DNA of 64,000 nt from a virus. The position numbers and the translations under genes are program-made. How positions within the stretch are numbered: the stretch's first letter is position 1; each line of letters starts with the position of its first letter. The notes below the pieces were generated by a model that searched no databases, had not been told where the DNA came from, and saw nothing but the letters and a program-made list of their open reading frames with translations. The DNA lies in the IMG/VR virus record IMGVR_UViG_3300009146_000001, positions 1 to 64,000 of that record. One strand, 5' to 3'. This document shows positions 3,640 through 64,000 of this stretch, piece after piece.

Positions 3640-6600
3640 TCATCCCACGACAATCACGGTGGCCTTGGCCCCGACGGGAATGATGGTCGGCCAGATCTTG
3701 ATCGTGTTGTCGGATTCCACGGTGACGCCCAGCTCGATCTTGGCTGGGATCGCGATGTCATCCTGCCAGCACTGAACCTCCACGTACTTGGTCCCGAGGT
3801 TGTGGGTGATGATCGTGGCGGCAGTAAGGGCGACGCCCTTCTGGACGAACCGACGCAGACCGTAGGAAACTTCCCCGCCACCGGATGGCAAACCTATAGG
3901 GCAAGTCGGGATCAGGTGATACCACGTCGTTCCGTTAATCGCCCCGTGGTACCGACCCGATAGGTCGGGGATGGCAGAACCGCAGCCGATGGCTAAGTCT
4001 AAGTCAACCAGAGCGCCAAGGCGGGTAAGAATGATGTTTTTCAGGTACAACGATGAACCGGCGGCAATGTTTCCGGGCGTTATGGAGGACGACGTATTTC
4101 CGTATGCACTCAACAAAGTAGTGGTCGGAACGAATTCGTTTTCAATGATTGTCTCTGCACCGGCAACTAAAGCCGTTGAAGATTTCGCGCCAGCCGGAAG
4201 CAATCCAGAGAAAAATGCGTGGGTCATGACGCTTCCAACCGGAACAAAGCAAGACGCCTTCGCCCTGTATGTAGGACCGCCAATCAGGCCGGGGACAGAG
4301 GCCCTATAGGGTGAGTGCGTTCGAATGATGGAGTTGTTGGACCTAAGCCAATCATCTGAAGGGGGAACACCCGCCCCGTCCACCCCGGTGTCGATATTCC
4401 CGACGACCGTCATATTACTGTTTGGAACCCAAGAGTCCGCCCCAGCCGTGAAATTGCTAGTATAGGCCGCAATCTGACTTCCCCACATGTCCGAAGAGTG
4501 GGTTCCGTAAAGCGTCAAAGCGCGGGCATCGGCAGCCGAAAGATACCGATTGAACAGCGCAGCCCGGTAGATTCTGGGCACTGATCCCTGACCCGATGAT
4601 CCCTGCCCTACAATGAAGTAAACCGAGTTGAGGCTAAGGTTCCACGGGTTGCCAGCCCCGCCCGTGCTTGGCGTGATATTCTGAAGAACGCCGTCAACAT
4701 ATAGGCTTCCGGGGCTCGTCGTGCCATCTCGGGTAAAAATAAGGTCAACGACTTTTCCGCCATAGTTGGATATGAGGTTGGCGAGGATTAACCTGACGTG
4801 ATCCGTGCTGTTGATGGATACAAAGCAATAGAGATTTCCATTGGAGTGGAGAGCCATCGACATCGAGTTGCCGAGAAAATTTGTCGTGGTTGGACCGACA
4901 AAAGCGATACAGTCGTAACCCGGTCCACGCTGTACCTCCGGTACCATGATCCGGGCGTAGAGCGTGCATGGCCCGGTGCCGATTACCTGAGTATTTGTAG
5001 TCCCGTCCCACAGCCGGGAAGTGACATTGTCATTCGGCCCGAAGACAACAGCCCCAGCCCGCTCAGACGACGGATCGTTGCTGAAGTTGAGTTCATCAAC
5101 AAAGGCCAAACCCCGGCGCGTGGGCGTCGAAGTAGTGTACCATGGCCTGACCCCATTGTTCTCGATTGACCCAGAGGTCAATGCGCTAGTGAAGGTGCCA
5201 ACCCCGAGGCGCAACGGAGCGCGGGTCGTTGACCCCGCAGCGAGTTCAAGCCAAGCCACCGGAGTGGTCGGTACGGTTACACCGATAGCGGCGGCAGCCT
5301 GAATGTATGCCTGACCGAATACCGAGAATGTCGTGCCGTCGTATGACAGCTTAGTCGCATCGGCAATCATCCGGCCATTCGAGCCGAAATACGGAACTGC
5401 CGCAGCCTGACCGGCAATACTGGGAGAATCGTGGAAATGACCCGGAAGCTTATCGTAGGTGCCGTAAACCGTGGCGTTGTACCGGAGGGACGTATCCGGC
5501 GAGAAGATACTCGATCCGCTCTGGTAGGCCGCCCCAAGGTCAATGTCGATGATGCACCCGGCCACCGATGGCGAAGTAGTTCCCCAACGATCCGACATCC
5601 TGACACCAGAACGGGCGAGTTCGATGACCTCATCCAGCGAAAGAGAACGGTTGTAGAACCGGGCACGATAGATCGACTCTGGAAACGGAAGCACGCCCGT
5701 GTGCATGCTGCCGATGCGAATCTTGAGCGGGTTTCCCGTCAGGGAATTTGCCACCTGAGAGCTTCGGGTATAAGTCTGCTGCTCGCCGTTGATGTAGCAA
5801 TTCTCCACCCCAGCGGTCCGGGTCACCACGATGTCGATGACGCGACCAAACCACTTCGTCATCGGGATCGCCGTGGAGAGAATGAAGCCAGCACCAGAAT
5901 CCCGTGCGAAAAGAATGAGACTGGTAGGGTTCGTTAACGCAATGTAACCACCCATGTCGTTCGCTGCGGCCCCGTCCGCTGCATGGTTGCTCAAACACCA
6001 GACACCAGAATTGGCTGCAACTGGAACCGTTGGCCAGCGTAGGCGGATGGCGAACGAATAATCCCCCGTGCCAATGACACCCGGAATCTGAGACTCCGCC
6101 CAGTACTTGCCAGTCGATGGAGAATTAAACCGGAGACGTGTAGCCTCCGATGCACTGGCATCGTTGGTGAAGTCGATGTCGTCGAGGAAGGCAATACCGC
6201 GCCGGGTAGGAGTGGTGTTCGTAAAGTAGGGACGCAAGCCATCGTGCTCAACGTACCCGGCTACAGCCGCCGCCATCGTCGATGTGGCCAAGAACATCCG
6301 GTTGTTCGCCGCGTCCCACCCAAGCTCATTGGCCGCGCCGGTGAGAAGGTTCGATCCGTCGCCATATCCGATGGCCCCGGCAGCCAGCGTGGGCTGACCC
6401 ATCTGACCGCGAAGCGCCTGCACCGTCACCTGCCTCACATCTCTCGGAGTGGCACTCGCATCGAGATCGGTGATCATCACCTGAGACGTCGTGCTCAGGG
6501 TCGTGGTCGCCGCCTTGATCGTGATCCCGGCGTTGAACGTATGGAACCCGGTCCACGTCGCATTGATCGCCCGGTCGATGGTCAGCGGGAAGTTCGCCGC

Positions 6601-9600
6601 CGCACTGCCATCGAATGTCGCTACCCCGGACAACTCCGTCGTGGCAGTCAGCGTCATCGCCGCCGCCCACTTCGGCGCGGAGTTCACCGTGAAGGTCCAC
6701 GCCTGACTCGCCGAGAGCGGCATCGCCGTCCCGCTGTTCGTCACCGTGATATTCGGTGCCGTCCCCGTCATCGTCAGGGTGCGGGTCTCCGGTACGAACC
6801 CGCTCGTGGTATCGCCGACGAACACGAACTTCTTCCACGGGCTCCACGTTCCGACGTCGACGAACTTGCTGAACCAAAGCTCGGCCTTAGCCGGATCAGC
6901 AATCAACTGTGACCAAAGCTGGAAGGAACCGTAAGACGACGTCGTTGCCCCTCGCTCAAAGCGGACACCGCCACCGAAGGACGTAGGAAAATTGACCGAT
7001 GCCGTCGTATTCTGGAATACGAAGAACTGGAGCGCGGTCGGTAGAGTGAACCCATCAGTCACCGTGGACCCAGTCAACTTCGGCGCGGCGATGACCGTGT
7101 GCGTCCACGTCCGGTTCACCGTCAGGTCAGCCCCGGCAGGCGCAGCGGTGATCGTCAAATGAGCCGTACCTCCGGACGAGTGTGTGATCGTCCGGGTTAT
7201 CGGCGCGGCACCGGATAGGTCCGTCGCTGGCACCGTGATCGTCCAAGTCCGGTTGACGCTGAGGTCGGACCCGGCTGGTGCCGCCACGGCTGTTGCAATC
7301 CCGGCACCGACAATGGTCAGCGTCCGGGTCAGGGGCACATACTTCGTATCGAGCGTCGGGTAACTGTTCGCCCAAGCCACGGTCAGGGGAGTCGTGTAAT
7401 CCCCACTCCCATCAACGCTCGCCATCGAACCCGTGGCGTCTCCGGTCCAAGTAAAGCTGCGCGCCGTTGTCCACTTCGGGGCCGAAACCACCGCAAGCGT
7501 CTGGCTGGTGAGAGACAGGGTCGCCGCGCTGGCCGCGATCAGCTCCGCTGCCCCAGTGGCGGTGGTTGTCCGCCCAAGAAGCGCAGGCGGAATAATGCCG
7601 CCGACATCCGAGTAGGAATGCGGGTGGCTGGCCGGAACGGTGATCGTCCAAGCCCGGTTGACGCTGAGATCCGTCCCCACCGGAGCCGCCAATGTCGTCA
7701 CAAGCCCAGCCCCGGTCAGGGTCAGCGTCGTCGCCTTCAGGGCGTAGGTACTCAGGTTCAGGTAGGTCGTGAGATCCGAAGCCAAGACCTGAACCACATT
7801 CTGGGCATTGGTCGCCGCGTCTGCGGCCACCCCGAGGAACCGGGTCGCCGCCCCGATGGCAGTACCCAAGGGCTGGACCCTGACCGCAATGGAAGGAATC
7901 GCGGTGGCAGGCTGGAAGGTATGCTTCTGGGTCCAAGTGGGCGCGATGTCCGCCGCGAGGGAAATCGTCCACGACGGATTCGAAGAGAGATCCTGAGTCG
8001 GTGATACCGCAGTGAGGCTAAGATACCCACCGGCGCTGATCGTGATCTGGCGGCCAGTCGGAACCCCGCCGATGCCAGTCAGGAAGCTCGCGTTGGTAAT
8101 CGACTGGAGCTGAACCCGCGTGGTGGCCGGACTACTCGTCCACACCGCGACATGGGTGAATGGGACAGTCGGGAAGTTGAACGTCGGGGCAGCCAGCTTG
8201 AGCCCGTAGATCGAAAGCATCGCCGTCGACGCTGACGCATCCTGAATCAGTTCCCCGGCAACGCCACGGGACAGCTTCGCGTCCATCGCGCCACCACCAT
8301 CACCCCACCACAGTTCGCCCCCGGCCGTGATCGCGAACCTCGCCGTCCCTGACTCGTTGGTCTTGGTGGCAATGGCGTGGGCGGAAGGCGAGGAATTGAA
8401 CCAAGTGTGCAGCCCCTTCCAGAGCGGACTGATCGTCTGGTCAATCTCCAAGGTGGCATCGTGGGCGATATAAGCGGTGCCCTGCGCTGTCGATCCAACC
8501 GCCTTGGCGGCGATGCCCACGAGGTTGGCTGGGATCGCCGGGTTGGGAACCTTCAGAGAAGTCCTGACGGACGCCAGCGCGGTCCACCGCAAAGGCTGCG
8601 CAGAGCCAGACGGATCATCCTCGTAGGTCGCGAAGAAGCCGGGGGATGCCTTCTCTGTCGCCAGCGTGGACAGACCAGCTCCGAAAACATGAACGGAGGT
8701 CCAGCTCGGGGCGATGCCGACATCCAGTTGCAGGGTCGCATTGCTCCGCAACGACGTGTTGCCGGACCCGGCCGTCGGAGCACTGATGTTGACCGTGTTG
8801 GCCGGTGGCGTGCCGAACGACACCAAGGCATTCGCGTCAATCGTGTACGTCCACAGGAGTGGAGATGCCCCCTGCGTTTGAGGACCAGCGGGAAGAATCG
8901 TCAGCGCGGAGGAGGAACTCTTGTGCTCCAGAGTCGGCAGGACCACCGTCGGGAAGTCACCCCAGTAGGGCTTCGTGGCGTCGCTGCGGAGAACCTTGTT
9001 CGCGACGAACGTGAGCTGCTCGACAATCGTATTGGGAACGGTCGCCGTGTCCTTGGAGACGAAGAGGCTGGACCGGCCATACCCGGTGGAGTCGACGAAG
9101 GAAATCTTCGTCCCGTCGATCACGATGCCGGGACCGGCAATGAGGTCCGTGACCGAATCCAGAACCCAGACTTCCGGGTCCGTGTCGATGTTCGCAATCG
9201 GCTGGCTCTGGCGGTACTTCCGCCCCTTATTGATCGTGCCAAGGCCCACCGTGACCGTGGCCCCGGTGGTCACCTCTGCTGGCTCGTCCGCATCGAGCGT
9301 GCGCTTCAGGACGAATGGCGTGCCAGCCGACCCGACGTCCGAGACGTAGTAGACGCCATTGGCGAACTGGCTCGTCTGGTCCTTGCACAGAACCCGGTCG
9401 TTGAGGACCAAGGTCAGGCTGTCGAACACCGAGGCAAAGTTGGCGATGGCCCCATTCCCGGACGAAGTGATCGAGTCGGTGGCCGAGGAGTAGGAGCCAA
9501 CCACCGCAGAAGTCGTGGCGCACTTGACCGCCCCAATCGGCCGGTTGCCGGAACTCAGGTTGTCCGCATATGCCTTTGTGACCGCGTCATTGGCGGCGAC

Positions 9601-10008
9601 CGGGGTGCCCACGAGGAGCCTGCCCGCCGTGTACCGCACCGCCACCGAGTCCGCCCCGAAGGTGTCCCGCTCGGAGTTGAAGCCATCGAGAAGATCCGCG
9701 TTGAGGCCCGTGACCTTGGTCGTGTTGTTGTTAACCGAGAACGGAGAGCCGGACGACGTGTTGAAGGTCCAGAACCCCGTGATCGTTTCTGCCCCACCGA
9801 TGCGGGCGAACCACATCCACCCGGCCGGAGCGGTCGTGACATAAACCCCGGCATGGTCCGGCGACTGGCCAGAGACCTCGGAGAATCCGAACTGCCCCTT
9901 GAACGGCGCTGGCGGCAGGCCACTGGTGAAAAGCTCGAACCCGGCGTTGATGATCCGGTTCCTCTCCAGATCAAAATTGGTCAGGCTTCGGAAGTCTTGG
10001 GCGGGCAT
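3640..10008 (-). CDS. Giant tail fibre/adhesin with two LamG (ConA-like) domains
   Basis: 2122 aa. Contains LNADLLDG, DAVTKAYAD and DRVLCKDQT motifs, repeated DLSVNRxWT and APKW units, two LamG-like ends (IYRARFYNRSLS, IYRAALFNRYLS) and C-terminal ITHNLG. Confidence 0.85.
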   Translation of the reverse strand: MPAQDFRSLTNFDLERNRIINAGFELFTSGLPPAPFKGQFGFSEVSGQSPDHAGVYVTTAPAGWMWFARIGGAETITGFWTFNTSSGSPFSVNNNTTKVTGLNADLLDGFNSERDTFGADSVAVRYTAGRLLVGTPVAANDAVTKAYADNLSSGNRPIGAVKCATTSAVVGSYSSATDSITSSGNGAIANFASVFDSLTLVLNDRVLCKDQTSQFANGVYYVSDVGSAGTPFVLKRTLDADEPAEVTTGATVTVGLGTINKGRKYRQSQPIANIDTDPEVWVLDSVTDLIAGPGIVIDGTKISFVDSTGYGRSSLFVSKDTATVPNTIVEQLTFVANKVLRSDATKPYWGDFPTVVLPTLEHKSSSSALTILPAGPQTQGASPLLWTYTIDANALVSFGTPPANTVNISAPTAGSGNTSLRSNATLQLDVGIAPSWTSVHVFGAGLSTLATEKASPGFFATYEDDPSGSAQPLRWTALASVRTSLKVPNPAIPANLVGIAAKAVGSTAQGTAYIAHDATLEIDQTISPLWKGLHTWFNSSPSAHAIATKTNESGTARFAITAGGELWWGDGGGAMDAKLSRGVAGELIQDASASTAMLSIYGLKLAAPTFNFPTVPFTHVAVWTSSPATTRVQLQSITNASFLTGIGGVPTGRQITISAGGYLSLTAVSPTQDLSSNPSWTISLAADIAPTWTQKHTFQPATAIPSIAVRVQPLGTAIGAATRFLGVAADAATNAQNVVQVLASDLTTYLNLSTYALKATTLTLTGAGLVTTLAAPVGTDLSVNRAWTITVPASHPHSYSDVGGIIPPALLGRTTTATGAAELIAASAATLSLTSQTLAVVSAPKWTTARSFTWTGDATGSMASVDGSGDYTTPLTVAWANSYPTLDTKYVPLTRTLTIVGAGIATAVAAPAGSDLSVNRTWTITVPATDLSGAAPITRTITHSSGGTAHLTITAAPAGADLTVNRTWTHTVIAAPKLTGSTVTDGFTLPTALQFFVFQNTTASVNFPTSFGGGVRFERGATTSSYGSFQLWSQLIADPAKAELWFSKFVDVGTWSPWKKFVFVGDTTSGFVPETRTLTMTGTAPNITVTNSGTAMPLSASQAWTFTVNSAPKWAAAMTLTATTELSGVATFDGSAAANFPLTIDRAINATWTGFHTFNAGITIKAATTTLSTTSQVMITDLDASATPRDVRQVTVQALRGQMGQPTLAAGAIGYGDGSNLLTGAANELGWDAANNRMFLATSTMAAAVAGYVEHDGLRPYFTNTTPTRRGIAFLDDIDFTNDASASEATRLRFNSPSTGKYWAESQIPGVIGTGDYSFAIRLRWPTVPVAANSGVWCLSNHAADGAAANDMGGYIALTNPTSLILFARDSGAGFILSTAIPMTKWFGRVIDIVVTRTAGVENCYINGEQQTYTRSSQVANSLTGNPLKIRIGSMHTGVLPFPESIYRARFYNRSLSLDEVIELARSGVRMSDRWGTTSPSVAGCIIDIDLGAAYQSGSSIFSPDTSLRYNATVYGTYDKLPGHFHDSPSIAGQAAAVPYFGSNGRMIADATKLSYDGTTFSVFGQAYIQAAAAIGVTVPTTPVAWLELAAGSTTRAPLRLGVGTFTSALTSGSIENNGVRPWYTTSTPTRRGLAFVDELNFSNDPSSERAGAVVFGPNDNVTSRLWDGTTNTQVIGTGPCTLYARIMVPEVQRGPGYDCIAFVGPTTTNFLGNSMSMALHSNGNLYCFVSINSTDHVRLILANLISNYGGKVVDLIFTRDGTTSPGSLYVDGVLQNITPSTGGAGNPWNLSLNSVYFIVGQGSSGQGSVPRIYRAALFNRYLSAADARALTLYGTHSSDMWGSQIAAYTSNFTAGADSWVPNSNMTVVGNIDTGVDGAGVPPSDDWLRSNNSIIRTHSPYRASVPGLIGGPTYRAKASCFVPVGSVMTHAFFSGLLPAGAKSSTALVAGAETIIENEFVPTTTLLSAYGNTSSSITPGNIAAGSSLYLKNIILTRLGALVDLDLAIGCGSAIPDLSGRYHGAINGTTWYHLIPTCPIGLPSGGGEVSYGLRRFVQKGVALTAATIITHNLGTKYVEVQCWQDDIAIPAKIELGVTVESDNTIKIWPTIIPVGAKATVIVVG

Positions 10009-47146: not shown

Positions 47147-47290
47147 GGGTGGGTTGCATAGGTAGTAACCGATAGAGCGTGGCCCAAGGGACGGTTCCCT
47201 TGGTTCCCACTCTGACGGTAACCAATCCTTCAGACGCTAACGGAAATTCCGCTAGTGCAACTGACACACACTGACGGGAAAGCATTTGGT
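47140..47290 (+). promoter_or_regulatory. Cassette: box A-hairpin-box B-leader
   Basis: Box A TAG at 47144 is the upstream stop; stem CCAAGGGA/TCCCTTGG; box B 47237-47255; two ACTGAC. Confidence 0.8.
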
Positions 47291-48391
47291 ATGATATTCG
47301 AAGTTAACTACGCGGAGTTGGGTGACCACATCGACAACAGCATCGACAGCGGCATGGCCGCAGCGGTCATCAGCCACCCCGGTGTCGGCAAGACCACGTT
47401 CATCAAGGCCGTGGCCAACAAGCGCAACATCGCCATGGGTGGCAAGCGCATCGGCGACACCTTCGGGCGGCGGGAGATGCTCGGCTTCCTCTATGAGCCG
47501 GTCGACTTCCGGGGACTCATGGTTCCGCAGCAGGATGGCAGCACCAAGGTGTTCCCCTTGGACAAGTGGCCGTTCGAATCCTTGGTGCAGAAGGGACTCA
47601 TCCCTGAGCACGGCGTGTTCGTTCTCGACGACATGCTCAACGCACCTCGCTCGGTGCTGGATGCATTCGCCGAGCCCTTGTGCGAGCACACGGTCAACGG
47701 GGAAAGGTTGGCTCCCGGCTGGACGATCATCGCAACCGGGAACCATATCGGTGGAGGCAGCTCGGCCAAGCCGATGCCCAACCACGTCACGAACCGGCTC
47801 GCAATCCTTGCGCTCAAGCCGGACTGGGAATCATGGGCTAGCTGGGCCGTCGGCAATATCGCGCCGGAGTTGCTGGGGTATTTCGAACTCCAGAAGGGGG
47901 CGGACCTCTTCGCATACGACCCCAAGCTGCGCGCTGAGCGGCCGAACGAGCCGTACCTCACGCCGAGATCATGCGAGCACCTGTCTCGACGCATCGAGGC
48001 GTGGCGTGCGAACCGGGGCGACAAGCCGCCGATGCATTTGTATGCATCCGTGGTCGGTGACTACGGAGCCAAGCTCTGGGCCACGCTGGATTACATTCAC
48101 GAGCTTGCACCTTGGGAAGAGGTGCTCGCGGATCACAAGGCAGCGCGTCTGCCGGTGTCCGCCGGGGCGAAGTTCGCCCAGATCAGCATCCTCTTGGGAG
48201 GCTTGCAGCAGAACTGCCCGGAAGGGATGAGCATCCCGCGTCCCATCGCCGCAGCGGTGGGCGGGTACATGAACCGCCTGCCCAACGAGGTGCAGGCCGT
48301 CGCCCATAACCGGGCGATGAGGCTGCGCAAGGAGTGGAGCCGGACGGACGAGTGCACGAAGTGGTTCGTGAAGAACCAATCGGAAATCTAG
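47291..48391 (+). CDS. MoxR-type AAA+ ATPase
   Basis: Walker A HPGVGKT, Walker B FVLDD, IIATGN, NRL, TPRS. Confidence 0.85.
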   Translation: MIFEVNYAELGDHIDNSIDSGMAAAVISHPGVGKTTFIKAVANKRNIAMGGKRIGDTFGRREMLGFLYEPVDFRGLMVPQQDGSTKVFPLDKWPFESLVQKGLIPEHGVFVLDDMLNAPRSVLDAFAEPLCEHTVNGERLAPGWTIIATGNHIGGGSSAKPMPNHVTNRLAILALKPDWESWASWAVGNIAPELLGYFELQKGADLFAYDPKLRAERPNEPYLTPRSCEHLSRRIEAWRANRGDKPPMHLYASVVGDYGAKLWATLDYIHELAPWEEVLADHKAARLPVSAGAKFAQISILLGGLQQNCPEGMSIPRPIAAAVGGYMNRLPNEVQAVAHNRAMRLRKEWSRTDECTKWFVKNQSEI

Positions 48392-48508
48392 GGGTGAGTT
48401 ACACCTATGGAGCGGGCGATCAGCGTCTGCTCCATACGTGTGTCTCAACACTGAGATACTGCTAACGGAAATTCCGCTAGCGAACCAACCAAGAAAGGGA
48501 ACTGACGG
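48385..48508 (+). promoter_or_regulatory. Cassette: box A-hairpin-box B-leader
   Basis: Box A TAG at 48389 is the upstream stop; 13-bp stem TATGGAGCGGGCG/CGTCTGCTCCATA; box B 48462-48480. Confidence 0.8.
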
Positions 48509-49903
48509 ATGGATAACACAACACCGGCTGTCTTGCGAAAGGCAGTCAACCAGATCTTCCTCAAGGCAATCTGGGTCACGGAGATCGGCTTCGAACGCTG
48601 CGTCTTCATCGAGATGCCGGAACTCATGGCCTCGAACGGGCAAGGCACGATGGCGACGGACGGAAGGGTAGTCTACTACCACCCGTCCTGCCTCAGGTGG
48701 CAGCCTGCGTTCATCGAAGGCGTGATCGTGCATGAGTGGCTTCACGGTGCACTGATGCATCCGGAGAGGTTCGCGGTGCTCCCGGAGAAGAACCACAAGG
48801 TGGCCAACATCGCGATGGACGCCATCGTCAACGCGATGTGCATCGAGTGGGGATTCAAGCTGCCGGAAGGTGCCATCGACATGCCCGAGGGGCGGACGCA
48901 TACGTTCGAGCAACTCTACGCCAAGCTCATGGGCAAGCAGAAGCAGCAGCCGGAGCCGCAGCGTGGCAAGGGCAAGGGCGGCGACCAGCAGGGTGAATCC
49001 GAGGGCGATCAGGGTGGAGACTCTGACGGGGATGGTGAGGGCGAGGGCTCCGGGTCAGGAGATCAGGAGGATTCCGATCAGGATCGGGAGGGCGATGGCG
49101 GAGGTGGCGACGAGGAGAAGGACGGGGACGGGGATAAGGAAGGCAAGGGCAAATCCGGTAACGGAAAATCCGCTAAGGATGCAAAGCCCGAGCCCGCCAA
49201 GGGTCCGCCCAAGCCGACGCTCGGCGAGAGGGACATCCACAAGGCTCCGTCTCGTGGATCCCAAGCCGAGGACAAGACAGCGGAGGAGCGGGCCAATGCC
49301 GCCATCGTCCGTGCCGTGGCCACAGCCAAGGCGCATGGCAAGGATCCGCTCGGGCTCGGCCTCGCCGTCGCAGGCTGGGGAGAGTCGAAGGTATCATGGC
49401 GCGAGCAGCTTGCTGCCTACGCCACGCAGCGGACCAACGAGGACTGGTCTTACATGAAGGCCAACGGTTCCTACGCTGCCATGAACGTGATCGTTCCGGG
49501 CAGGTACAGCAAAACAATCGGGGACGTGATCGTCGTCCGCGATACATCGGGCTCGCTCTATTCGAGGCAGAAGGAAGTCATGACCGAGGTGGCCGGGATC
49601 ATCACCCAGTGCACGCCAACCCGGATCATCCTCATCGACTGCGATGCAGAGGTGCACCGCGTCCTCGAACTCGAACCGTGGCAGCCCTTGCCCACGGATG
49701 CACTCGGCGGAGGCGGGACGGATTTCCGTCCGGTCTTCGAGGAGGTGGCCAAGCGTTATCCAGACGTGGGCCTGATGGTATTCATCACGGACCTCATGGG
49801 TTCGTTCCCGGATCAGGCTCCGCCCTACCCGGTGATCTGGTGCGGCATCGAGAACGGCAATCTCAAGCCGCCGTTCGGTGACTTCGTGGAAGTCGCAGAC
49901 TAA
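48509..49903 (+). CDS. Metallopeptidase + vWA domain protein (DUF2201-like)
   Basis: MATDG, HEWLH zincin motif, acidic G/D/E linker, MIDAS DTSGS, GGGGTDF, FITD. Confidence 0.88.
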   Translation: MDNTTPAVLRKAVNQIFLKAIWVTEIGFERCVFIEMPELMASNGQGTMATDGRVVYYHPSCLRWQPAFIEGVIVHEWLHGALMHPERFAVLPEKNHKVANIAMDAIVNAMCIEWGFKLPEGAIDMPEGRTHTFEQLYAKLMGKQKQQPEPQRGKGKGGDQQGESEGDQGGDSDGDGEGEGSGSGDQEDSDQDREGDGGGGDEEKDGDGDKEGKGKSGNGKSAKDAKPEPAKGPPKPTLGERDIHKAPSRGSQAEDKTAEERANAAIVRAVATAKAHGKDPLGLGLAVAGWGESKVSWREQLAAYATQRTNEDWSYMKANGSYAAMNVIVPGRYSKTIGDVIVVRDTSGSLYSRQKEVMTEVAGIITQCTPTRIILIDCDAEVHRVLELEPWQPLPTDALGGGGTDFRPVFEEVAKRYPDVGLMVFITDLMGSFPDQAPPYPVIWCGIENGNLKPPFGDFVEVAD

Positions 49904-56053: not shown

Positions 56054-56377
56054 ATGCAACGACCAACAATCCAAGCTGAGGGTGTGGTGTATATGGCACC
56101 GCAACTCAGGGACTTTCCCGGTCAGGAACCCTACGTCGAATTCGTTCTGGAGCTGGAGCCACGGACCAACAGCTTGGGCAGGGAATACCGTGAGCGAGTC
56201 TACGTCCGCCTCTTCGGGATACGCGGGATGAATGCGCTCGTCGAGATCAAGCTGGGCAACTACGTCAGCGTCGCCGGGGAAGCGGACAAGAAGATGTTCA
56301 CCGCACCGGACGGCCGCAACTTCGCCAACCTCGTCGTCATCACCAACGGCTACAAGGTTCTCTTCCGCCCGACATGA
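56054..56377 (+). CDS. OB-fold SSB-like protein without acidic tail
   Basis: PQLR...VRLFG...LGNYVSVAGE...DGR pattern of the bacterial SSB core. Confidence 0.65.
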   Translation: MQRPTIQAEGVVYMAPQLRDFPGQEPYVEFVLELEPRTNSLGREYRERVYVRLFGIRGMNALVEIKLGNYVSVAGEADKKMFTAPDGRNFANLVVITNGYKVLFRPT

Positions 56378-57753
56378 CAACCCCACATCCCGCCTACGCC
56401 CGGCTCGAAACCCTGCGGCCCAAGCTTCTGCCTTGGCAGCCGGAGGCGTGCGAGAAACTGATCGGGTCCATCCTCCGCCATGGCTCTGCCCTCGATAGCT
56501 CCGACACCGGGGTGGGCAAGACCGCGCACGCGATTGCCTGCGGCTACGCCCTCGGCATGCCGTTGGCCATCGTCTGCTCGAAGTGGGCCAAGCCGCAGTG
56601 GAAGTACATGGCATGGATGCTCGGCAATACGAACATCGCCGGGGTCCATCACTGGGAGGAGGTGCGGCTGGGCAAGACGCCCTTCGGCAACTGGGTCAAC
56701 CCGGATGCCAAGGAGAACTTCCAGTGGAAGCTGCCGCCCCATTCCCTCGTGGTCTTCGACGAGGTTCACAAGGCCGGGGGATTCAAGACGCAGAACTCGT
56801 GGATCATGATATCGGCCAAGCGCAACGGCCACTCCGTCCTCGGGCTGTCCGCCACGGTAGCGGATACGCCGCTAAGGATGTTCGCCCTGAGCTACGTGCT
56901 CGGGCTTGTACCAACGACTCGTGCCTACTGGCCGTGGCTCATGTGCAACGGGTGCCAGCGCAACCAGTGGAACGGGATGGAGTTCAGGGATCCATCGGGG
57001 CGGCACACGGCACGGATCCACGACATGATCTTCAAGGCGGGCAGAGGGGTGCGGGTGAAGAAGGATGAGATCCCCGGTTTCCCGGACATCCTCATCGACG
57101 TCGAGACGATGGACTGCTCCGACGCCACGGAGGAAATCGCCAAGGCGTACAAGGAAATCGAGGAAGCCTTGGGTGAGTACACGGCCAAGATCATCTCCGC
57201 CACGAGTGCGGCCGAGATCGTGATCCGGATGCGCCAGAAGATCGAGCTGCTCAAGATCCCGGCCACGGTCAGCATGGTCGAGGACATCGAGGATGACGGA
57301 GGTGCGGCCGTCATCTTCGTCAACTACCGGGAGACGGCGATCAAGCTATGGTCGGCACTCAACTTCAGCTCGAAGGGCGAGGTTGGTCTCATGATCGGAG
57401 GGATGAAGGAGTCGGATATCCAGAAGCACATCCAAGCCTTTCAGGATCAGGCGACCCACCGGCTCGTCGCCACCTACGGGTGCGGCTCGGAGTCCATCAA
57501 CCTTCAAGACCTGACCGGGCAACGGCCGCGCACGGAGTTACTCTTCCCGACGCACTCGTCGCGCCAGATCAGGCAGGCGCAAGGGAGGATCCACCGGGCT
57601 GGCGGCAAGAGCTTGGCCAACGTGCGCTTCGTCTTCGCGGCCGACACCATCGAGGAACACCTGATGCGGACGATCCGGGACAAACTCCTGCGCCTCGACA
57701 CGCTTCAGGACGGCGTCGCTTTGCCGATGCCCCTTCCTCCGGAGATAGAGTAG
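56374..57753 (+). CDS. Superfamily 2 (SNF2-like) helicase
   Basis: DTGVGKT, VFDEVH, LSAT, ESINLQ, QAQGRIHR. Confidence 0.9.
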   Translation: MTTPHPAYARLETLRPKLLPWQPEACEKLIGSILRHGSALDSSDTGVGKTAHAIACGYALGMPLAIVCSKWAKPQWKYMAWMLGNTNIAGVHHWEEVRLGKTPFGNWVNPDAKENFQWKLPPHSLVVFDEVHKAGGFKTQNSWIMISAKRNGHSVLGLSATVADTPLRMFALSYVLGLVPTTRAYWPWLMCNGCQRNQWNGMEFRDPSGRHTARIHDMIFKAGRGVRVKKDEIPGFPDILIDVETMDCSDATEEIAKAYKEIEEALGEYTAKIISATSAAEIVIRMRQKIELLKIPATVSMVEDIEDDGGAAVIFVNYRETAIKLWSALNFSSKGEVGLMIGGMKESDIQKHIQAFQDQATHRLVATYGCGSESINLQDLTGQRPRTELLFPTHSSRQIRQAQGRIHRAGGKSLANVRFVFAADTIEEHLMRTIRDKLLRLDTLQDGVALPMPLPPEIE

Positions 57754-57761
57754 AATGATTT

Positions 57762-58002
57762 ACCGGCATGCTCGCTGCCCCACTGCCGCCGGTCTCCCGT
57801 GTGTTGCTTCACGGGCGGGGATCAGGTGCGACTTCGGCATGGACCTGAGCATTGCAACAGGGGAGGGGCCTGCCCTTGGTTTAATAGGGCCAAGGGATCC
57901 ATCCCTCAGCCTCGGTTGAAGGGGCGGCAACCGGGGTAACGCTCCCCGCCAATGCCGAAGACCGCCCCACTTTTCCTCACCATAAATTCAGTGAAGTGCT
58001 CA
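57762..58002 (+). ncRNA. Candidate structured ncRNA with two pseudoknots
   Basis: Several mutually compatible helices; G-U pairs favour the + strand (see findings). Confidence 0.45.
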
Positions 58003-58082
58003 TTGACTCTTGACATATATTCCCCTAGTTAAGGGGCATATGATCAAGTGGCTAGATGAACAACGTAGGATCCTCGCGGAAC

Positions 58083-61000
58083 CTATGCGAAAGCCGCCGG
58101 GCGCATCTTCCGTCCCCGTGATCGGCCCACCGCATAACGTAAGAGTCCACGGTCGGAAGCGGAACGGCGTCGTCCGGCCCCTCGTCTTCCGAGCAAGGAG
58201 CGACGTGACGCTTGGCGGCCACCTTGAAGCTTTGGAACTGCGACAGCGGGTGCACGACGCAGTGCTCGAACGGCTGGCAGCTTAGCGGATTTTCCGCTAG
58301 CGGATGACGACTTGGCGAGGCGGATCCCACCTCCGCCTCCGCCACCCCCGCCTCCACCCCAGCTTGCGGCACGGCCACTGCCTCCGCCCTTGGAGAGGGC
58401 TTTAATCGCCGCCTCCCGGTGCTGTACCGCCGTAAATTGCTTCGGCGTCAGCCGCTTCAGCGTGTCCTCCTTCTCATCCTCCTCGGGCACGTTGTCATAC
58501 ATTCGCCAGACGGATCGGGAGGCCACCGCTTGGTTGACCCGCTTCGCCGCCGCCGACTGGTCGATCCCCTTCTTGTGCATGAGCTGGCGGATCCCCTCGG
58601 CCTTCTCCTCCTCCGACTTGCGCTTGGCCTCGGGGTCGCCGGTCCGCTCGTACTCAATCCCCCACTTGATCGCCCGCTCCACGTTGTCGGAAGCCGGGTT
58701 CTGGGACACCTGACCGAAGGGGCGATGCGCAATCTTGGTACCGTAGTCGATGCCGGGGATGGCTTCGACGAGCGTGCCGACTATGCCCGGAGGCGCGGAC
58801 ATGGCGCGGATCGAGGCGGCTGCCTCCCGGTACTCACGGTGCGCCGGGTCGTTCAGGTTCCAGAGGACACCAACGATGGGCAGACGACGGGCAAGGAACT
58901 TCCCCGTCTGCGTCATGATGACATCCTTGGTCGCCTTGATATCGGTGAAGTCCGCTCCACCAATGATCGCCTTGAAGGCATAGACGGCATCGGCCAAGAA
59001 GCCCAGCACGGGCGAGAAGGCACCAATCTCCAGCGTGCCTTCGCCGAACCCGGCGAAGAGGTCATCGTAGAATTGCCCGAGCGGGATCGAGGCGAGTAGC
59101 GCACCCGTGAAGACGATCAGCCCGGTGCGAAGGTCCGGGTTCCGAATGAAGTTCTCGACGGTCCACCCCGGAGTGCGCAACCCCAAGGCCCCCAAGCCCC
59201 ACGAAACCCCGAGCGTACCGATGGCTCCGCTGCCGAGCAGCAGGAAGAGGAGGCCAAGGATGTTCGCAATCTCCCTCGGGTAGCGGTAGTACCACGGCAT
59301 CTTGTGCCGGGGCATCTTGAAGATTTCCCCGGTGACGATGCTGTAGAAGTTCGCACTGTTCCACACCTTGAGGGCGGCGAACGACCGGGCCACCTTGCCC
59401 TTCCATCCCTTGATGAACGCCACGGGTGGACGTTCCCGCAGGGTCTGGACCTGACTCTCGGTCAGGTAGTTGTTCATCCATGCGGTAATCGCAGGTTTCG
59501 GCAGCTCGGTCTGGACCGCCTCCTCCATCGACTTGCCCGTGGCGATGGTCTGGTTGTAGAGGTTGATCATCACCGACTCCAAGGATCCACCGCCGGTCAG
59601 CCAGCGCCGGGCCATCCGGACATTCGCCCGGTTCATCCCGAGTTCCTTCTCGGTGAATGGGTAGAGCGGGTCCAAGGGATCGTCGGTCCACACCCCCTTC
59701 TTCTTCCGCTGGTCGAGTGCGCGCAACGCCTTCTGCTTGAGCCTGCGCAGATCGGCGACGGCCGTGTCCGCGAAGGTCATGTTGTTGATGTCCTCGGCGA
59801 TGGTCCGGCTTTCCCTCGTGGCCCAGATTACAGCCTTGCCGAACGGCACGCGGGTGATCGCCGTGCTGATCCAGCGTTCGACGCCCTTGAAGAATCCGGA
59901 CTGGCCGCGCTCGTACTCCAAGGCCCCGGTCACAGCCCATATGTTTCCCGAGGTCTTCTGGAGAAGGCGCTCATCGTAGAGCGTCATCCCACGGATGATG
60001 CCCCGGTCGCTCATCTCGACGATTGCACTGACCGACTTGTGGTAGGCCGGGGCAAGGATCGGGATGTGCCGGAGCATGGCGCGCAGCCACTTCGTCCTCC
60101 CAGCGCGGGTGTTGCTCAGATGGTAGACCGTGATCTTGGCGGCGTTCTTCATCCACCGCGCCACCGCCTTGGCCGTGCACAGCGGGAAGATGACGTGGCT
60201 CCAGAGAAGCTTCTGCTGGCGGTAGATGCCCGTGGTCAGGGTGAGTACCGTGTCCTTAATTACGGACAGGCTATTCCACAGGCCGGAAACCAAGGGTGCC
60301 ACGCCAAGCATGGAACCCCAGCGAAACGTATCGTGGATGTGCTGCTCTGGATCGAGTGAAGCCTTGGCAAATTCCTCCATCAACGCGACCGACTGGTGCA
60401 TGATCTTGTGAATCCGCTCCAGCTCTTCGAGATTGAGTGCCGTCTCCTCCTGAAACTTCTTCTGCACGAGTGTGTCGGCCTTCCCACCCGGAGTACCGAC
60501 CGCCTTGTTCGCCTCGGAAATCTGGGCGACGACCACCGCGTCGATCACCGACATCGCCTTGGCGAGGTTCGTCGAGTGATGATTCAGGACAACACCGTGC
60601 AGGGTGTTCATCGCCTGATGCGATGTGAGTCCGTACTCGTAGAAGCCCGACGGGGCTTCCATATCTCCACGCGGGGTAATGAAGCTGCTCTTGGTATCCG
60701 TCGATGTGCTGGACTTGGACTGCCGCTGCATGTCGAAGTCGTCCATCTTCTCCTGCGCCAAGAGGAGCTTGTCCGCGTACTCGTTCTCGATCTCCTGCCG
60801 GATCTCGGCCGGTGTCCCCGTGGCCTTGCCCGATGCGACGACGCGGGCGGTCAGGTCGTCGATGATCTCGTTGAACGAGGTCACCGTCTTCTTGCCCTTC
60901 TTCAGATCCCTCCTGAGTTCATTGTAGTAATCCTCCATCCCGAACCCGGCGTTGGCCCCCATGAGTTGTGAGTTCACCCGAGCGCGGTATCTCGGGTTCG

Positions 61001-64000
61001 AGGTCATGATGAATGAGTGGACCAGATGCTGGAAGGTCAGTGGCTTCGTCGCCTCATCGGTATGGCGGAGGACATTGTTGATATAGTCCGCACGGAACCC
61101 GGTCGGATCCGCAACCATCGTGCGCTTGTTCTTGTCGTCGCGCCTCTGCTGCTGCCCCTGCCTCGCCTTGCGGAAGTCTTCGAGGAGCATGCCCAGACGC
61201 TCCGGAACCACGAGGGACCGGGACATGATCATCGGCCCGCCACCAAAGGCCAGACGCTTGCGCTCCTTGTATGCCTCGGCCTTGCCCGGTGCCATCTCGT
61301 GCACCTCCAAGAGGTCGGCCGTCTCCGTCGTCAATTCCCCGGTCTGGCCGGAGACCTGCTTGCCAATCCCGCGCTCGTAAGCGGCCTGCGCATGGGCGGC
61401 GGCGATATCGGCGGGACTCACCGTGATCCAGCCCGTCGGGGAGATGTGCCGACCCGCGTCGTACAGCCTGTCCCCCGCCACAACCGGGTCATCGTATGCC
61501 TCCTGATACGAATCGAGGATTACCTCGGTGACGAGCCAGCGGTACGCATCCCGGTCTGCCTGCATCCTCGCCTGCGGATTGCGCATGTTCCGGATCAGGT
61601 CACCCCAGATCTCGGGCTCGACGTGCAGCTTATGGCCCTCCATCGCCTTGAATATCTTCTCGAAGACAATCCCCTGCTTGCGCTTGAGGCCCTGCTCGTG
61701 GATCCCCCAGTTGACGTAGGCCACCATCGCCTTGCTGTAGACGTGCCTGCCAAACCCCTTGATGGAATCCTCAACATCCTTGAGGACCGGGTTGAGAATT
61801 TCCCGGATGAAGTCGAGATTGATAAGCCCCTTGGCCCCCTGCCAGAAGAGACCCGCCTCGTCGATGGTGTGATTCGAGATCGCGTTCTGCGGATCGAGGA
61901 ACACGGAGAGTTCCCGGATCACCTGCTCGTAACTCTGGAGAACGACCGGGTCGGCCGTGTTGTAGTTGGCCGTGATCCAGTTGGTAATGTCCGTGATCGC
62001 CTGAATGATATCCACCCGAGCCTTCTCGGTCGGGAACTTCATCACGGAGATCGAGAAGTTGCGCACCTCCCGGTCCTCAATCGTCTGGCCAGTCGCCGGA
62101 TCCTTCCGCTCCATGAGGGGCATGACCAACGTGACGCTGCCGAAGGGTTCACCCTTGTGGGGTTCCTTCATCCGGATGATGTCGTTGGCCCGGCGGTGGA
62201 TGAGGGCGACCGCCTGATTGACCGCTGCCCGGTAGTCCTTCGAGGCGGCGACGGACTCCATCATCTTGATCGCATCGTCGGTGGCTTCCCTCCTCAGGGC
62301 CGCTACCTCGGACGCCTTACTCAACCGGCGCAACCGCTCCAGCTTCTTGCCGGAATTGGTGGCCACCATCCGGAAGTTATTGAGCGCCCGGCGCACCGAG
62401 AACTTGTCCGGGTTCTTCTTCGACAGTGGATCAAGGACCGTGGCCAACGCCTGCATCTCCGCCTTGTCCACGGCGAAGTTGGAGGCCAGTTCCTGAAGAT
62501 CGAGGATGATCGAGTACCCCGGACTCCATGCCTGAAGCGGAGGCAGCCCACCCGCCAGTGATGTCGTCGCCATCGCCACGGCCGCCGACTTCGTGAGGCC
62601 CGTCTTGGTGATGACGTCCGCCAAGATCCCGGTCTTGGAGATGTGATCAAAGAAGTCGTGCGTCGTTGGGATAAGCCCGTTGAAGGCTGCCTGAATACTG
62701 GCTGGGTCCAGCCTTGGATCCGCTGCCAGAGCGTTGAACAACGCCTTGAGGTCGGAGAGGGATTGGGCCTGTCCCAAGAGACTCGCTGCCCCTTCCAGTG
62801 CCCGCTTGTCCTCGGCCATCCCGGTTGAATCCCAGTCGATGGGATCGAATGCGGTGCTCGCCACCTTCGTACCCGTCCGGGCCTTGAGCCGAACGAGGTC
62901 GACGAGGGAATCGCGGATGCCGTCGATGCGGTTGGACACGCGCTGCCGGTACTGATCCTCGGTCGCTCCCTTGAGGAAGGTCTGCAACTCGCTGAGGGCG
63001 TCGGCCTCCGCTTGGGTGAGATTCTCTAACGAGGTCTTGGCCCCATTGAGGTCGGCCATGAGCCGCTCGTGCGCGGCCGTGACACCGGCGGAGGCGTGAA
63101 TGATCTCGGCAATCTCATCATCGGATAGCTCCGTCGCCTTGACCGTCCCGGCGAGGACGCGCTCCCAAGCCGAGAGCTTGGTCCCGGTCGGGGGTGGCGT
63201 TGCCGTCGCGATGTTCCTCGCCTCGGCAAGGCTGCGCAGGGTGTGGCCCGTACCCAATCCCGCCAAGGTCATGCGGGCTCTCCTCCGGTCCTTGGCCATC
63301 GCCCGGCGGGTAGCCAGTGGTGTGCCCTTGGGTGGCGGCGCGGCCGTGGCCCGTGCCTCAAGGTCGTTGATCATGGTCGTCACCGCCGGGTCGACCATCA
63401 ATCCCTGCGCCCGCGTATGCTCCTCCAAGATCCGCTGGCCGAGCGGACCGACGTTCGAGGACGCCTTGAACTTGTCGTACTGATCCTTGTTGAAGACCGT
63501 GGACTGGAGCCGCTGTGCCGCCTCCTGTGCCGCCGCCGACACCTCGGTCTTCCCGGCCGTGAGGACGCTGGGCTTGCCCTCCTTCACCTCGTCGACGAAT
63601 CCGGGTGCCGCCACCTTGGTGGCATCGCTTGCCCGGCGCTGGGTCTCCGTCCACTCCAAGAGGTTGTCGACCTGATCCCGCAGCCTGACGATGGCCTCGG
63701 GCATGAAGTGCTCGGTGACCCCCGTCTTCGGATCGGTGTACTTGTCCGCGAATGCCCGGTGCAGCCATGACTGGAACCGGCGGAAGAAGGTGATGAGGTT
63801 CTCCTTGATCGTCCCGATGAAGGTGACTTCCTCGGTGAGCCCGACGCCGCCGCCGACCGGCCGCTTCGACGCCATCCGCAGGAGTTCCATCATCCATGCG
63901 GCCGGGGTGACCAGTCCGGGGTACGCCTCTTCCATCCCCTTCTCCAAGGCGGAGAGCTTGTCCGCCGGGATAAGTGTGCGGAGTTCCCGGAGGTGACGGC
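58083..64000 (-). CDS. Giant (>1950 aa) protein, probably an internal virion/ejection protein; N-terminus beyond the window
   Basis: Frame is open to the window edge; mostly helical; hydrophobic segments near the C-terminus; G/R-rich tail. Confidence 0.65.
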   Translation of the reverse strand, partial: RHLRELRTLIPADKLSALEKGMEEAYPGLVTPAAWMMELLRMASKRPVGGGVGLTEEVTFIGTIKENLITFFRRFQSWLHRAFADKYTDPKTGVTEHFMPEAIVRLRDQVDNLLEWTETQRRASDATKVAAPGFVDEVKEGKPSVLTAGKTEVSAAAQEAAQRLQSTVFNKDQYDKFKASSNVGPLGQRILEEHTRAQGLMVDPAVTTMINDLEARATAAPPPKGTPLATRRAMAKDRRRARMTLAGLGTGHTLRSLAEARNIATATPPPTGTKLSAWERVLAGTVKATELSDDEIAEIIHASAGVTAAHERLMADLNGAKTSLENLTQAEADALSELQTFLKGATEDQYRQRVSNRIDGIRDSLVDLVRLKARTGTKVASTAFDPIDWDSTGMAEDKRALEGAASLLGQAQSLSDLKALFNALAADPRLDPASIQAAFNGLIPTTHDFFDHISKTGILADVITKTGLTKSAAVAMATTSLAGGLPPLQAWSPGYSIILDLQELASNFAVDKAEMQALATVLDPLSKKNPDKFSVRRALNNFRMVATNSGKKLERLRRLSKASEVAALRREATDDAIKMMESVAASKDYRAAVNQAVALIHRRANDIIRMKEPHKGEPFGSVTLVMPLMERKDPATGQTIEDREVRNFSISVMKFPTEKARVDIIQAITDITNWITANYNTADPVVLQSYEQVIRELSVFLDPQNAISNHTIDEAGLFWQGAKGLINLDFIREILNPVLKDVEDSIKGFGRHVYSKAMVAYVNWGIHEQGLKRKQGIVFEKIFKAMEGHKLHVEPEIWGDLIRNMRNPQARMQADRDAYRWLVTEVILDSYQEAYDDPVVAGDRLYDAGRHISPTGWITVSPADIAAAHAQAAYERGIGKQVSGQTGELTTETADLLEVHEMAPGKAEAYKERKRLAFGGGPMIMSRSLVVPERLGMLLEDFRKARQGQQQRRDDKNKRTMVADPTGFRADYINNVLRHTDEATKPLTFQHLVHSFIMTSNPRYRARVNSQLMGANAGFGMEDYYNELRRDLKKGKKTVTSFNEIIDDLTARVVASGKATGTPAEIRQEIENEYADKLLLAQEKMDDFDMQRQSKSSTSTDTKSSFITPRGDMEAPSGFYEYGLTSHQAMNTLHGVVLNHHSTNLAKAMSVIDAVVVAQISEANKAVGTPGGKADTLVQKKFQEETALNLEELERIHKIMHQSVALMEEFAKASLDPEQHIHDTFRWGSMLGVAPLVSGLWNSLSVIKDTVLTLTTGIYRQQKLLWSHVIFPLCTAKAVARWMKNAAKITVYHLSNTRAGRTKWLRAMLRHIPILAPAYHKSVSAIVEMSDRGIIRGMTLYDERLLQKTSGNIWAVTGALEYERGQSGFFKGVERWISTAITRVPFGKAVIWATRESRTIAEDINNMTFADTAVADLRRLKQKALRALDQRKKKGVWTDDPLDPLYPFTEKELGMNRANVRMARRWLTGGGSLESVMINLYNQTIATGKSMEEAVQTELPKPAITAWMNNYLTESQVQTLRERPPVAFIKGWKGKVARSFAALKVWNSANFYSIVTGEIFKMPRHKMPWYYRYPREIANILGLLFLLLGSGAIGTLGVSWGLGALGLRTPGWTVENFIRNPDLRTGLIVFTGALLASIPLGQFYDDLFAGFGEGTLEIGAFSPVLGFLADAVYAFKAIIGGADFTDIKATKDVIMTQTGKFLARRLPIVGVLWNLNDPAHREYREAAASIRAMSAPPGIVGTLVEAIPGIDYGTKIAHRPFGQVSQNPASDNVERAIKWGIEYERTGDPEAKRKSEEEKAEGIRQLMHKKGIDQSAAAKRVNQAVASRSVWRMYDNVPEEDEKEDTLKRLTPKQFTAVQHREAAIKALSKGGGSGRAASWGGGGGGGGGGGIRLAKSSSASGKSAKLPAVRALRRAPAVAVPKLQGGRQASRRSLLGRRGAGRRRSASDRGLLRYAVGRSRGRKMRPAAFA

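Follow-up and report, generated by a model that had tools for sequence, protein, structure and literature searches.

The virus record IMGVR_UViG_3300009146_000001 describes a phage genome of 76,045 bp with a G+C content of about 61 % and a 123-bp terminal repeat. Its bases 1-64000 were analysed here, and this stretch of 64,000 nucleotides is referred to as the window. A helicase gene on the + strand and a giant open reading frame on the - strand converge in it, and the 329-bp spacer between them, running from stop codon to stop codon, holds the RNA element, as had been proposed in the earlier note on this DNA. The features flanking the element are the following:

56374-57753, + strand: SF2 helicase gene (Pfam Helicase_C, DEAD and ResIII; PHROG 62 'DNA helicase')
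58083-70778 in the full record, of which 58083-64000 lies in the window, - strand: giant open reading frame of 4231 aa, with its stop codon at 58083-58085
58016-58045, - strand: hairpin in the minus-strand minimum free energy (MFE) structure, 38 nt beyond the stop codon of the giant frame

Searches with the giant open reading frame gave no Pfam or PHROG match whatever, and for this reason the idea that it encodes an N4-like virion RNA polymerase was dropped; the 4231-aa protein is perhaps a virion or injected protein. The hairpin at 58016-58045 is probably the 3'-end or terminator hairpin of this minus-strand gene and would thus lie outside the RNA element; the region 57975-58045 folds better as minus-strand hairpins behind the stop of the giant frame. 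The same hairpin, together with TTGACTCTTGACA, is contained in an A+T-rich patch at 57970-58060 (about 40 % G+C, compared with 61 % for the genome), which could hold the terminator of the giant gene or a promoter, and a scan with consensus patterns for promoters and terminators called no site within this patch. A palindrome, TAGCGGA-TTT-TCCGCTA, is present at 58283-58299 within the 3' end of the giant frame. Elsewhere in the window, a second very long open reading frame (3640-10008, - strand, 2122 aa) has weak PHROG matches to head-decoration-type proteins, and at 47255-49903, in the early region, an ATPase (PHROG 1297) is followed by a DUF2201 metallopeptidase/VWA-like protein, forming a MoxR/VWA-type pair.

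Every pair of complementary strands that had been described for the element was found in the sequence at its coordinates. The parts of the element, and one pairing that we reject below, are as follows:

57762-57767 (ACCGGC) with 57788-57793 (GCCGGT), + strand: 5' hairpin A, seen in the sequence and beginning 9 nt past the helicase stop codon
57796-57801 (CCCGTG) with 57810-57815 (CACGGG), + strand: 5' hairpin B, seen in the sequence and in the MFE structure
57832-57840 (CTTCGGCAT; as RNA CUUCGGCAU) with 57952-57960 (ATGCCGAAG; as RNA AUGCCGAAG), + strand: helix P1, 9 bp
57841-57844 (GGAC) opposite 57948-57951 (GCCA), + strand: P1a, an imperfect extension of P1 (G·A, G-C, A·C, C-G)
57845-57859 (CUGAGCAUUGCAACA), + strand: 15-nt bulge, seen in the alignments
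57860-57865 (GGGGAG) with 57942-57947 (CUCCCC), + strand: helix P2
57866-57868 (GGG) with 57902-57904, + strand: P2a, a short, weak helix under P3, from RNAalifold
57873-57880 (CCCTTGGT; RNA 5' strand CCCUUGGU) with 57889-57896 (GCCAAGGG), + strand: hairpin P3 with an 8-nt loop, seen in the sequence
57910-57918 (CCTCGGTTG; RNA 5' strand CCUCGGUUG) with 57928-57936 (CAACCGGGG), + strand: hairpin P4, seen in the sequence
57921-57927 (GGGGCGG, contributed by the P4 loop AAGGGGCGG) with 57962-57968 (CCGCCCC), + strand: pseudoknot PK1, 7 bp, its 3' strand one base past P1
57969-57976 (ACUUUUCC), + strand: short U-run directly 3' of the PK1 strand, seen in the sequence
57846-57853 (TGAGCATT) with 57995-58002 (AGTGCTCA; RNA 3' partner AGUGCUCA), + strand: pseudoknot 2, 8 bp, rejected

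Folding energies of the single sequence are unremarkable for its composition (z = -1.6 for the + strand and, slightly better, -2.4 for the - strand), so that the case for a conserved RNA depends on comparison and not on thermodynamics. Among 5.8 billion proteins, the helicase has one relative at 88 % identity (P0002), two at 52 % (P0004 being one of them) and otherwise relatives at no more than 39 % (P0005-P0013 are about 34-39 % identical). In a scan of JGI metagenome contigs, one 52 % helicase relative, the locus L082, was found to carry the same element at the same place, and the sequence that follows directly after its helicase stop codon aligns with the spacer of the window. A covariance model (R1), for which only the window sequence and the four nested helices were used, PK1 being excluded, matches L082 at 5430-5568 with 35.8 bits (E ~1e-6), and had no other match over 84 loci. 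The RNA core is conserved to about 60 % on the sequence level, compared with about 69 % for the helicase gene.

The individual helices are retained in L082 to differing extents. P1, whose strands lie 120 nt apart, is present in the MFE structure of each of the two sequences when folded alone; its L082 version, UCCGGUAU/AUACCGGA, is 8 bp long, and two of its pairs have changed on both sides (one from U-A to C-G, the other from C-G to U-A). The pattern of P1a recurs as GGAC/GACA (GA, GC, AA, CG); P1a would be a conserved but imperfect pairing and shows no covariation. Being next to P1, this extension leaves the 15-nt bulge, which reads GCAGGCAUUAAAACA in L082 and is the single-stranded part with the highest sequence conservation (consensus NNRGCAUUNNAACA). 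P3 is represented by a hairpin with another sequence and loop (two double changes), and of P4 the inner 5 bp are kept (GUCUU/AAGAC, three double changes) while the outer pairs are lost. Hairpin A has a counterpart at the same relative place, GCCGGC 5346-5351 with GCCGGC 5373-5378, and at the position of hairpin B there is a hairpin of other sequence, CCAGCCC 5387-5393 with GGGCTGG 5408-5414. P2 corresponds to GAGGG/CCCUC with one double change; however, the G-run 57860-57868 can instead pair with UCCAUCCC at 57898-57905 around P3 with similar energy, and because this alternative is equally conserved in L082, P2 is not settled. RNAalifold, applied to the model-fitted alignment (A7), gave a compromise fold consisting of P2 and the 3-bp P2a, the latter with one G-C to C-G change in L082.

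When PK1 was added by hand to the model-fitted alignment, 94.6 % of the cells were standard pairs, and 10 of the 39 pairs were changed on both sides (two each in P1, P3 and PK1, three in P4 and one in P2), whereas sliding the 3' partners by 1-3 columns left 42-51 % of cells paired and 0-3 double changes; the alignment behind these counts had been fitted to the structure. In an unfitted MAFFT alignment RNAalifold again found P1 and P3, and the consensus energy (z = -4.1; SCI 0.55, compared with 0.30 when shuffled) was equalled by none of 200 column shuffles. These results, together with the compensatory changes in L082, indicate that the nested helices and PK1 are more than chance complementarities. 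The comparison consists of two distinct sequences, the window and L082, and is thus a single evolutionary comparison for which an R-scape-type statistic is impossible.

Two pseudoknots had been suggested in the earlier note, and only one of them stands. For PK1, all five aligned cells are paired in L082 (GGAGU 5520-5524 with ACUCC 5558-5562, 5 bp, the 3' strand two bases past P1), with two double changes, so that the pseudoknot differs in sequence between the two loci but holds its position. Since PK1 was absent from the covariance model, this pairing cannot have been fitted. Within one sequence taken alone, it has a chance expectation of 5-11 %. Pseudoknot 2, on the other hand, is at chance level: with G·U pairs allowed and the 19-nt junction compared with 114 nt of downstream sequence, an 8-bp run occurred in 357 of 2000 shuffles and in 387 of 2000 random genomic segments (18-19 %). 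It is also not conserved in L082, where the sole comparable partner lies past the first of two terminators and inside the hairpin of the second. For both of these reasons pseudoknot 2 was ruled out as a part of the element.

The non-canonical pairs had been described as G·U on the + strand, and this holds for both sequences taken together, where 6 G·U cells are found compared with 1 A·C cell, identifying the + strand as the folding strand. A coding explanation for the conservation was considered and ruled out. There is no conserved reading frame, each frame having stops in the window, in L082 or in both; a translated comparison of the two revealed no protein-level similarity beyond the shared nucleotides; the mismatches fall 18/25/20 over the three codon phases with no period of 3; and none of the open reading frames from the RNA stretch is recorded in the collection of 5.8 billion proteins. 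Read-through of the helicase stop codon was likewise rejected, as the in-frame extensions (about 60 codons for the window, 17 for L082) are unrelated. We therefore consider the proposal of a novel non-coding RNA to be borne out by the homologue in L082 (n = 2 sequences), in that, judged from this comparison, a conserved, structured, non-coding + strand element of about 210 nt with several helices and one supported pseudoknot appears to be real. The two-sequence evidence is enough for taking the structure seriously, but not for naming a function.

The search against Rfam proposed in the earlier note (Rfam 15, 4227 models) gave no match at gathering cut-offs over the whole window, and none in L082 and 15 related loci. 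In a permissive mode (57600-58200, E up to 10), only matches of 12.8-16.9 bits were obtained, compared with cut-offs of 38-50, and these noise matches were to asR3, SAM-IV and an archaeal C/D-box RNA. The SAM-IV match (RF00634; 14.0 bits, E 9.6, over 57888-58004, with a cut-off of 38 bits) was rejected, and the helices that it aligns cut across the covarying P1, P2 and P4. A cobalamin-type aptamer was also discarded, as no model match reached threshold, and the models for hammerhead, twister, twister-sister, pistol, hatchet, HDV-like and glmS ribozymes gave nothing in 57600-58200 at E up to 10. ARAGORN found no tRNA or tmRNA gene in the window or in L082, which, along with the absence of an Rfam family match, is in agreement with the initial impression that the element is not a tRNA, tmRNA or RNase P RNA. 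It is best read as the founder of a new orphan RNA family, belonging, as far as its sequence and fold can tell, to no described family.

Searches for further members covered several collections. Searches of 80 helicase loci with the element using blastn and nhmmer were empty, and no further member was found in 80 + 7 helicase loci. A second model, R2, found none in 47 whole IMG/VR records and gave only weak hits on 100 + 21 motif-selected and helicase loci, which were to coding sequence or to the selected motif alone; in three motif scans of IMG/VR, checking for the P1 pairing left only chance matches. Scanning IMG/VR with the single helicase protein gave nothing and with an alignment of close helicases a best match of 31 %, while the search of representative prokaryote genomes by way of the helicase yielded one spurious 38-residue hit. 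The INPHARED phages, searched at the DNA and protein level, yielded no further member, and their best helicase match is 24-25 %. Long gaps after the helicase in G+C-rich distant relatives (L004/L042 and L005/L007) were considered as sites of analogous RNAs and look like small coding genes instead. In four soil and rhizosphere DNA runs, short contig pieces cover the RNA stretch with 0 differing letters, so that they provide no material for a covariation test; three unrelated pieces in the helicase gene, covering 57601-57658, differ at 5-7 positions. The sequencing runs listed for this region included no RNA run. The identical short pieces from the 57500-58200 region come from soil and rhizosphere metagenomes of separate studies, in addition to the freshwater-sediment sample from which the record probably derives, and the phage is widespread, at low coverage.

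What follows the element in L082 is informative about its place in transcription. A first canonical intrinsic terminator (5566-5598) starts 3 nt past PK1 and consists of a G+C hairpin, CCCCCGACCC...GGGCCGGGGG, followed by UUUUUGUUU; a second (5616-5659) is a hairpin followed by UUUUUU. Past the terminators there is a promoter-like TTGACA, seen by eye, and then a separate + strand gene (5734-6465), which begins 136 nt past the first terminator, has a signal-peptide-like start, MKKNTIAIGLVLVASIIAAHA, and has no PHROG match. This gene for a secreted protein is an extra one, an insertion that separates the RNA from the large minus-strand open reading frame. The two terminators and the separate downstream gene argue that the RNA closes the helicase unit and is tied to the helicase rather than to the giant gene. 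The consensus scan of the window found no promoter-like or terminator-like site, and there is only the short U-run after PK1, ACUUUUCC, where the RNA may have its 3' end or its terminator tail.

The position after the helicase is also occupied by RNA genes in more distant phages. In five IMG/VR relatives, with helicases of 33-34 % identity, ARAGORN found a tRNA-Ala(TGC)/tRNA-Thr(GGT) pair 12-200 nt past the helicase:

L009, 4166-4325, same strand as the helicase: tRNA-Ala and tRNA-Thr pair
L022, 4910-5132, same strand as the helicase: tRNA-Ala and tRNA-Thr pair
L038, 2053-2206, same strand as the helicase: tRNA-Ala and tRNA-Thr pair
L039, 2849-3008, same strand as the helicase: tRNA-Ala and tRNA-Thr pair
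L046, 5344-5506, same strand as the helicase: tRNA-Ala and tRNA-Thr pair

Other helicase relatives have small coding genes or nothing in this slot. The tRNA pairs indicate that in the wider group the slot is used for stable RNA genes, and imply that the end of the operon gives rise to stable RNAs; the element shares slot and strand with them, but it has neither a cloverleaf nor a T-loop sequence. The position thus fits a stable RNA product, without telling what the RNA does.

Among described RNAs, there are partial likenesses. About 8,500 'DNAVirus_X' csRNAs have been predicted from phage intergenic regions in IMG/VR, with at least 3 distinct IMG/VR regions required and motifs of 29-151 nt (mean 67 nt) (PMC10690425). 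The element is like these in being a conserved, covarying intergenic structure of a metagenomic phage that is not in Rfam; however, no second IMG/VR copy was found, and the element is larger, at about 210 nt, and has a long-range helix and a pseudoknot. In class 1a xrRNAs of flaviviruses, the loop of a hairpin in a three-way junction pairs just 3' of the closing helix, through a pseudoknot of 2-7 bp (PMC8571300). The element likewise lies in a 3' untranslated end and has in both sequences a three-way junction closed by P1, in which P1/P2 enclose P3 and P4 (the exact register of P2 being uncertain), and PK1, with its 7 bp (5 bp in L082), falls within this range. For the xrRNA pseudoknot between 5' end and junction and for the J2/3 cytosine, no counterpart was seen by eye in an RNA whose 5' end is only inferred. 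Unlike the flavivirus RNAs, the element is twice the size, carries the 15-nt bulge and comes from a bacterial DNA phage, for which other nucleases are relevant. SAM-IV-type riboswitches resemble it in having a closing helix, internal hairpins, a loop-to-3'-tail pseudoknot and, as in L082, a terminator behind. With regard to an expression platform, the L082 terminator starts immediately past PK1, whereas the window has a short U-run and no scan hit; and unlike in riboswitches no regulated same-strand gene is conserved downstream, the L082 gene being unrelated and behind two terminators.

The pRNA of phi29-type phages is another phage RNA of comparable complexity, with 120-170 nt, a three-way junction, paired 5' and 3' ends and pseudoknot-type loop contacts. 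These contacts are intermolecular and the phages are small protein-primed podoviruses, whereas in the element the loop pairs with its own 3' tail and the phage has a genome of 76 kb; no Rfam match to pRNA was obtained for the element.

The explanation that we favour, though tentatively and on the basis of sequence comparison, is that the helicase operon gives rise to an RNA acting in trans, the element being either a stable product of this operon or a 3'-terminal domain of its RNA. According to this proposal, positions 57762-57976 of the + strand would be a structured non-coding RNA forming the 3'-terminal part of the helicase, or replication-module, transcription unit. The fold would begin with the two 5' hairpins, continue with the 9-bp P1 and the imperfect P1a, pass the 15-nt bulge and enter P2, which would open to a three-way junction bearing the hairpins P3 and P4. 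The P4 loop would pair with the seven bases after P1, and the resulting PK1 helix could stack on P1 and in this way lock the 3' end against the junction. Transcription would end just past the pseudoknot, in L082 at the two intrinsic terminators and in the window probably at the short U-run, and the RNA would then either be processed from the helicase transcript or be kept as a protected 3' domain. The most likely role in trans would be that of a protein-binding RNA or a scaffold or decoy RNA, with the conserved bulge as the likely recognition surface. In all of this, we infer the transcription of the element, its RNA ends, its stability and its function in trans.

Several other explanations have to be weighed against a stable RNA acting in trans. 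A regulated terminator, in which the junction and PK1 decide, depending on a ligand, a protein or folding, whether transcription stops or reads on, seems unlikely to us. The terminator stem would in the window be formed by the PK1 helix itself (GGGGCGG/CCGCCCC, with ACUUUUCC behind it), and transcripts reading on would run antisense to the convergent late gene of 4231 aa, across its 3' end; in L082 they would enter the next gene. The aptamer-like build, with a closing helix, a conserved asymmetric bulge, a junction and a pseudoknot to the 3' tail, speaks for this mechanism, as do the close spacing of PK1 and the intrinsic terminator in L082, the U-run after PK1 in the window and the two competing pairings of the G-rich strand of P2, which exclude each other and are both kept in L082. 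Riboswitches that control antisense or non-coding transcripts exist, the B12-controlled AspocR and EutX being examples, and they provide a precedent. However, no same-strand gene is conserved downstream, with a convergent gene in the window and a gene with its own promoter-like site in L082; no riboswitch family is matched (the best, SAM-IV, reaches 14 bits where 38 are required); a clear anti-terminator pairing was not found by eye; and the number of sequences is two. Decidedly unlikely is also that the region has no dedicated function, being a G+C-rich spacer with ordinary transcript-end hairpins kept by common descent, or that its hairpins have a role in the DNA itself, such as at an origin or a protein-binding site. 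While the ordinary folding energy, the several alternative pairings permitted by the G-run and C-run strands, the single comparison sequence and the chance expectation of PK1 taken alone would all be consistent with this idea, it does not account well for ten pairing-preserving double substitutions, where slid controls have 0-3, for a consensus fold that beats all column shuffles on an unfitted alignment, for two compensating changes in a helix as long-ranged as P1, for a pseudoknot that alters its sequence and keeps its position, or for a G·U bias which indicates that one strand is read as RNA.

We consider it improbable that the element is a knot-like fold at the 3' end which, on the principle of xrRNAs, stops processive RNases of the host and in this way stabilizes the helicase mRNA or leaves a stable decay fragment. 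Its location in the 3' untranslated end of the operon and its class 1a secondary-structure topology, with a pseudoknot in both sequences, would suit such a role, but it has no sequence or model likeness to the xrRNA families in Rfam, the ring of xrRNAs is closed by a short 5'-end pseudoknot for which no counterpart was identified, the element is about twice the size and has a conserved bulge which xrRNAs lack, and in L082 the 3' end is already guarded by two terminator hairpins. It is highly improbable that the element belongs to a new class of catalytic RNAs, self-cleaving or other, and processes the end of the helicase transcript. Small ribozymes are common in phage intergenic regions, and both this setting and the compact, pseudoknotted junction with its conserved unpaired segment would be compatible with catalysis; no ribozyme model matched even at E up to 10, there is no candidate cleavage site, and two sequences cannot define invariant catalytic bases. 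The boldest proposal would see in the pseudoknot-locked three-way junction a new functional class of RNA, serving, at the meeting point of early/middle and late transcription, as a catalyst or sensor, either as a pseudoknot-gated terminator that sets antisense transcription into the giant late gene or as a phage counterpart of nuclease-resistant RNAs, and to this we give little credence.

To our knowledge, structured RNAs of phages that are of comparable size and for which a pseudoknot is supported are few. pRNA, GOLLD and ROOL RNAs and the riboswitches and ribozymes of phages have proved mechanistically informative. At present the value of the element is that of an orphan motif with two members, and it represents a well-defined candidate for structure probing and for re-examination with more relatives. 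If real, it would constitute an RNA family that is new, rather large and of complex topology, from a group of soil and sediment phages of which almost nothing has been sampled. Given its fixed position, where the replication operon ends and the late genes face it, it would be a candidate for a role in transcript-end control or for a stable RNA of the infection.
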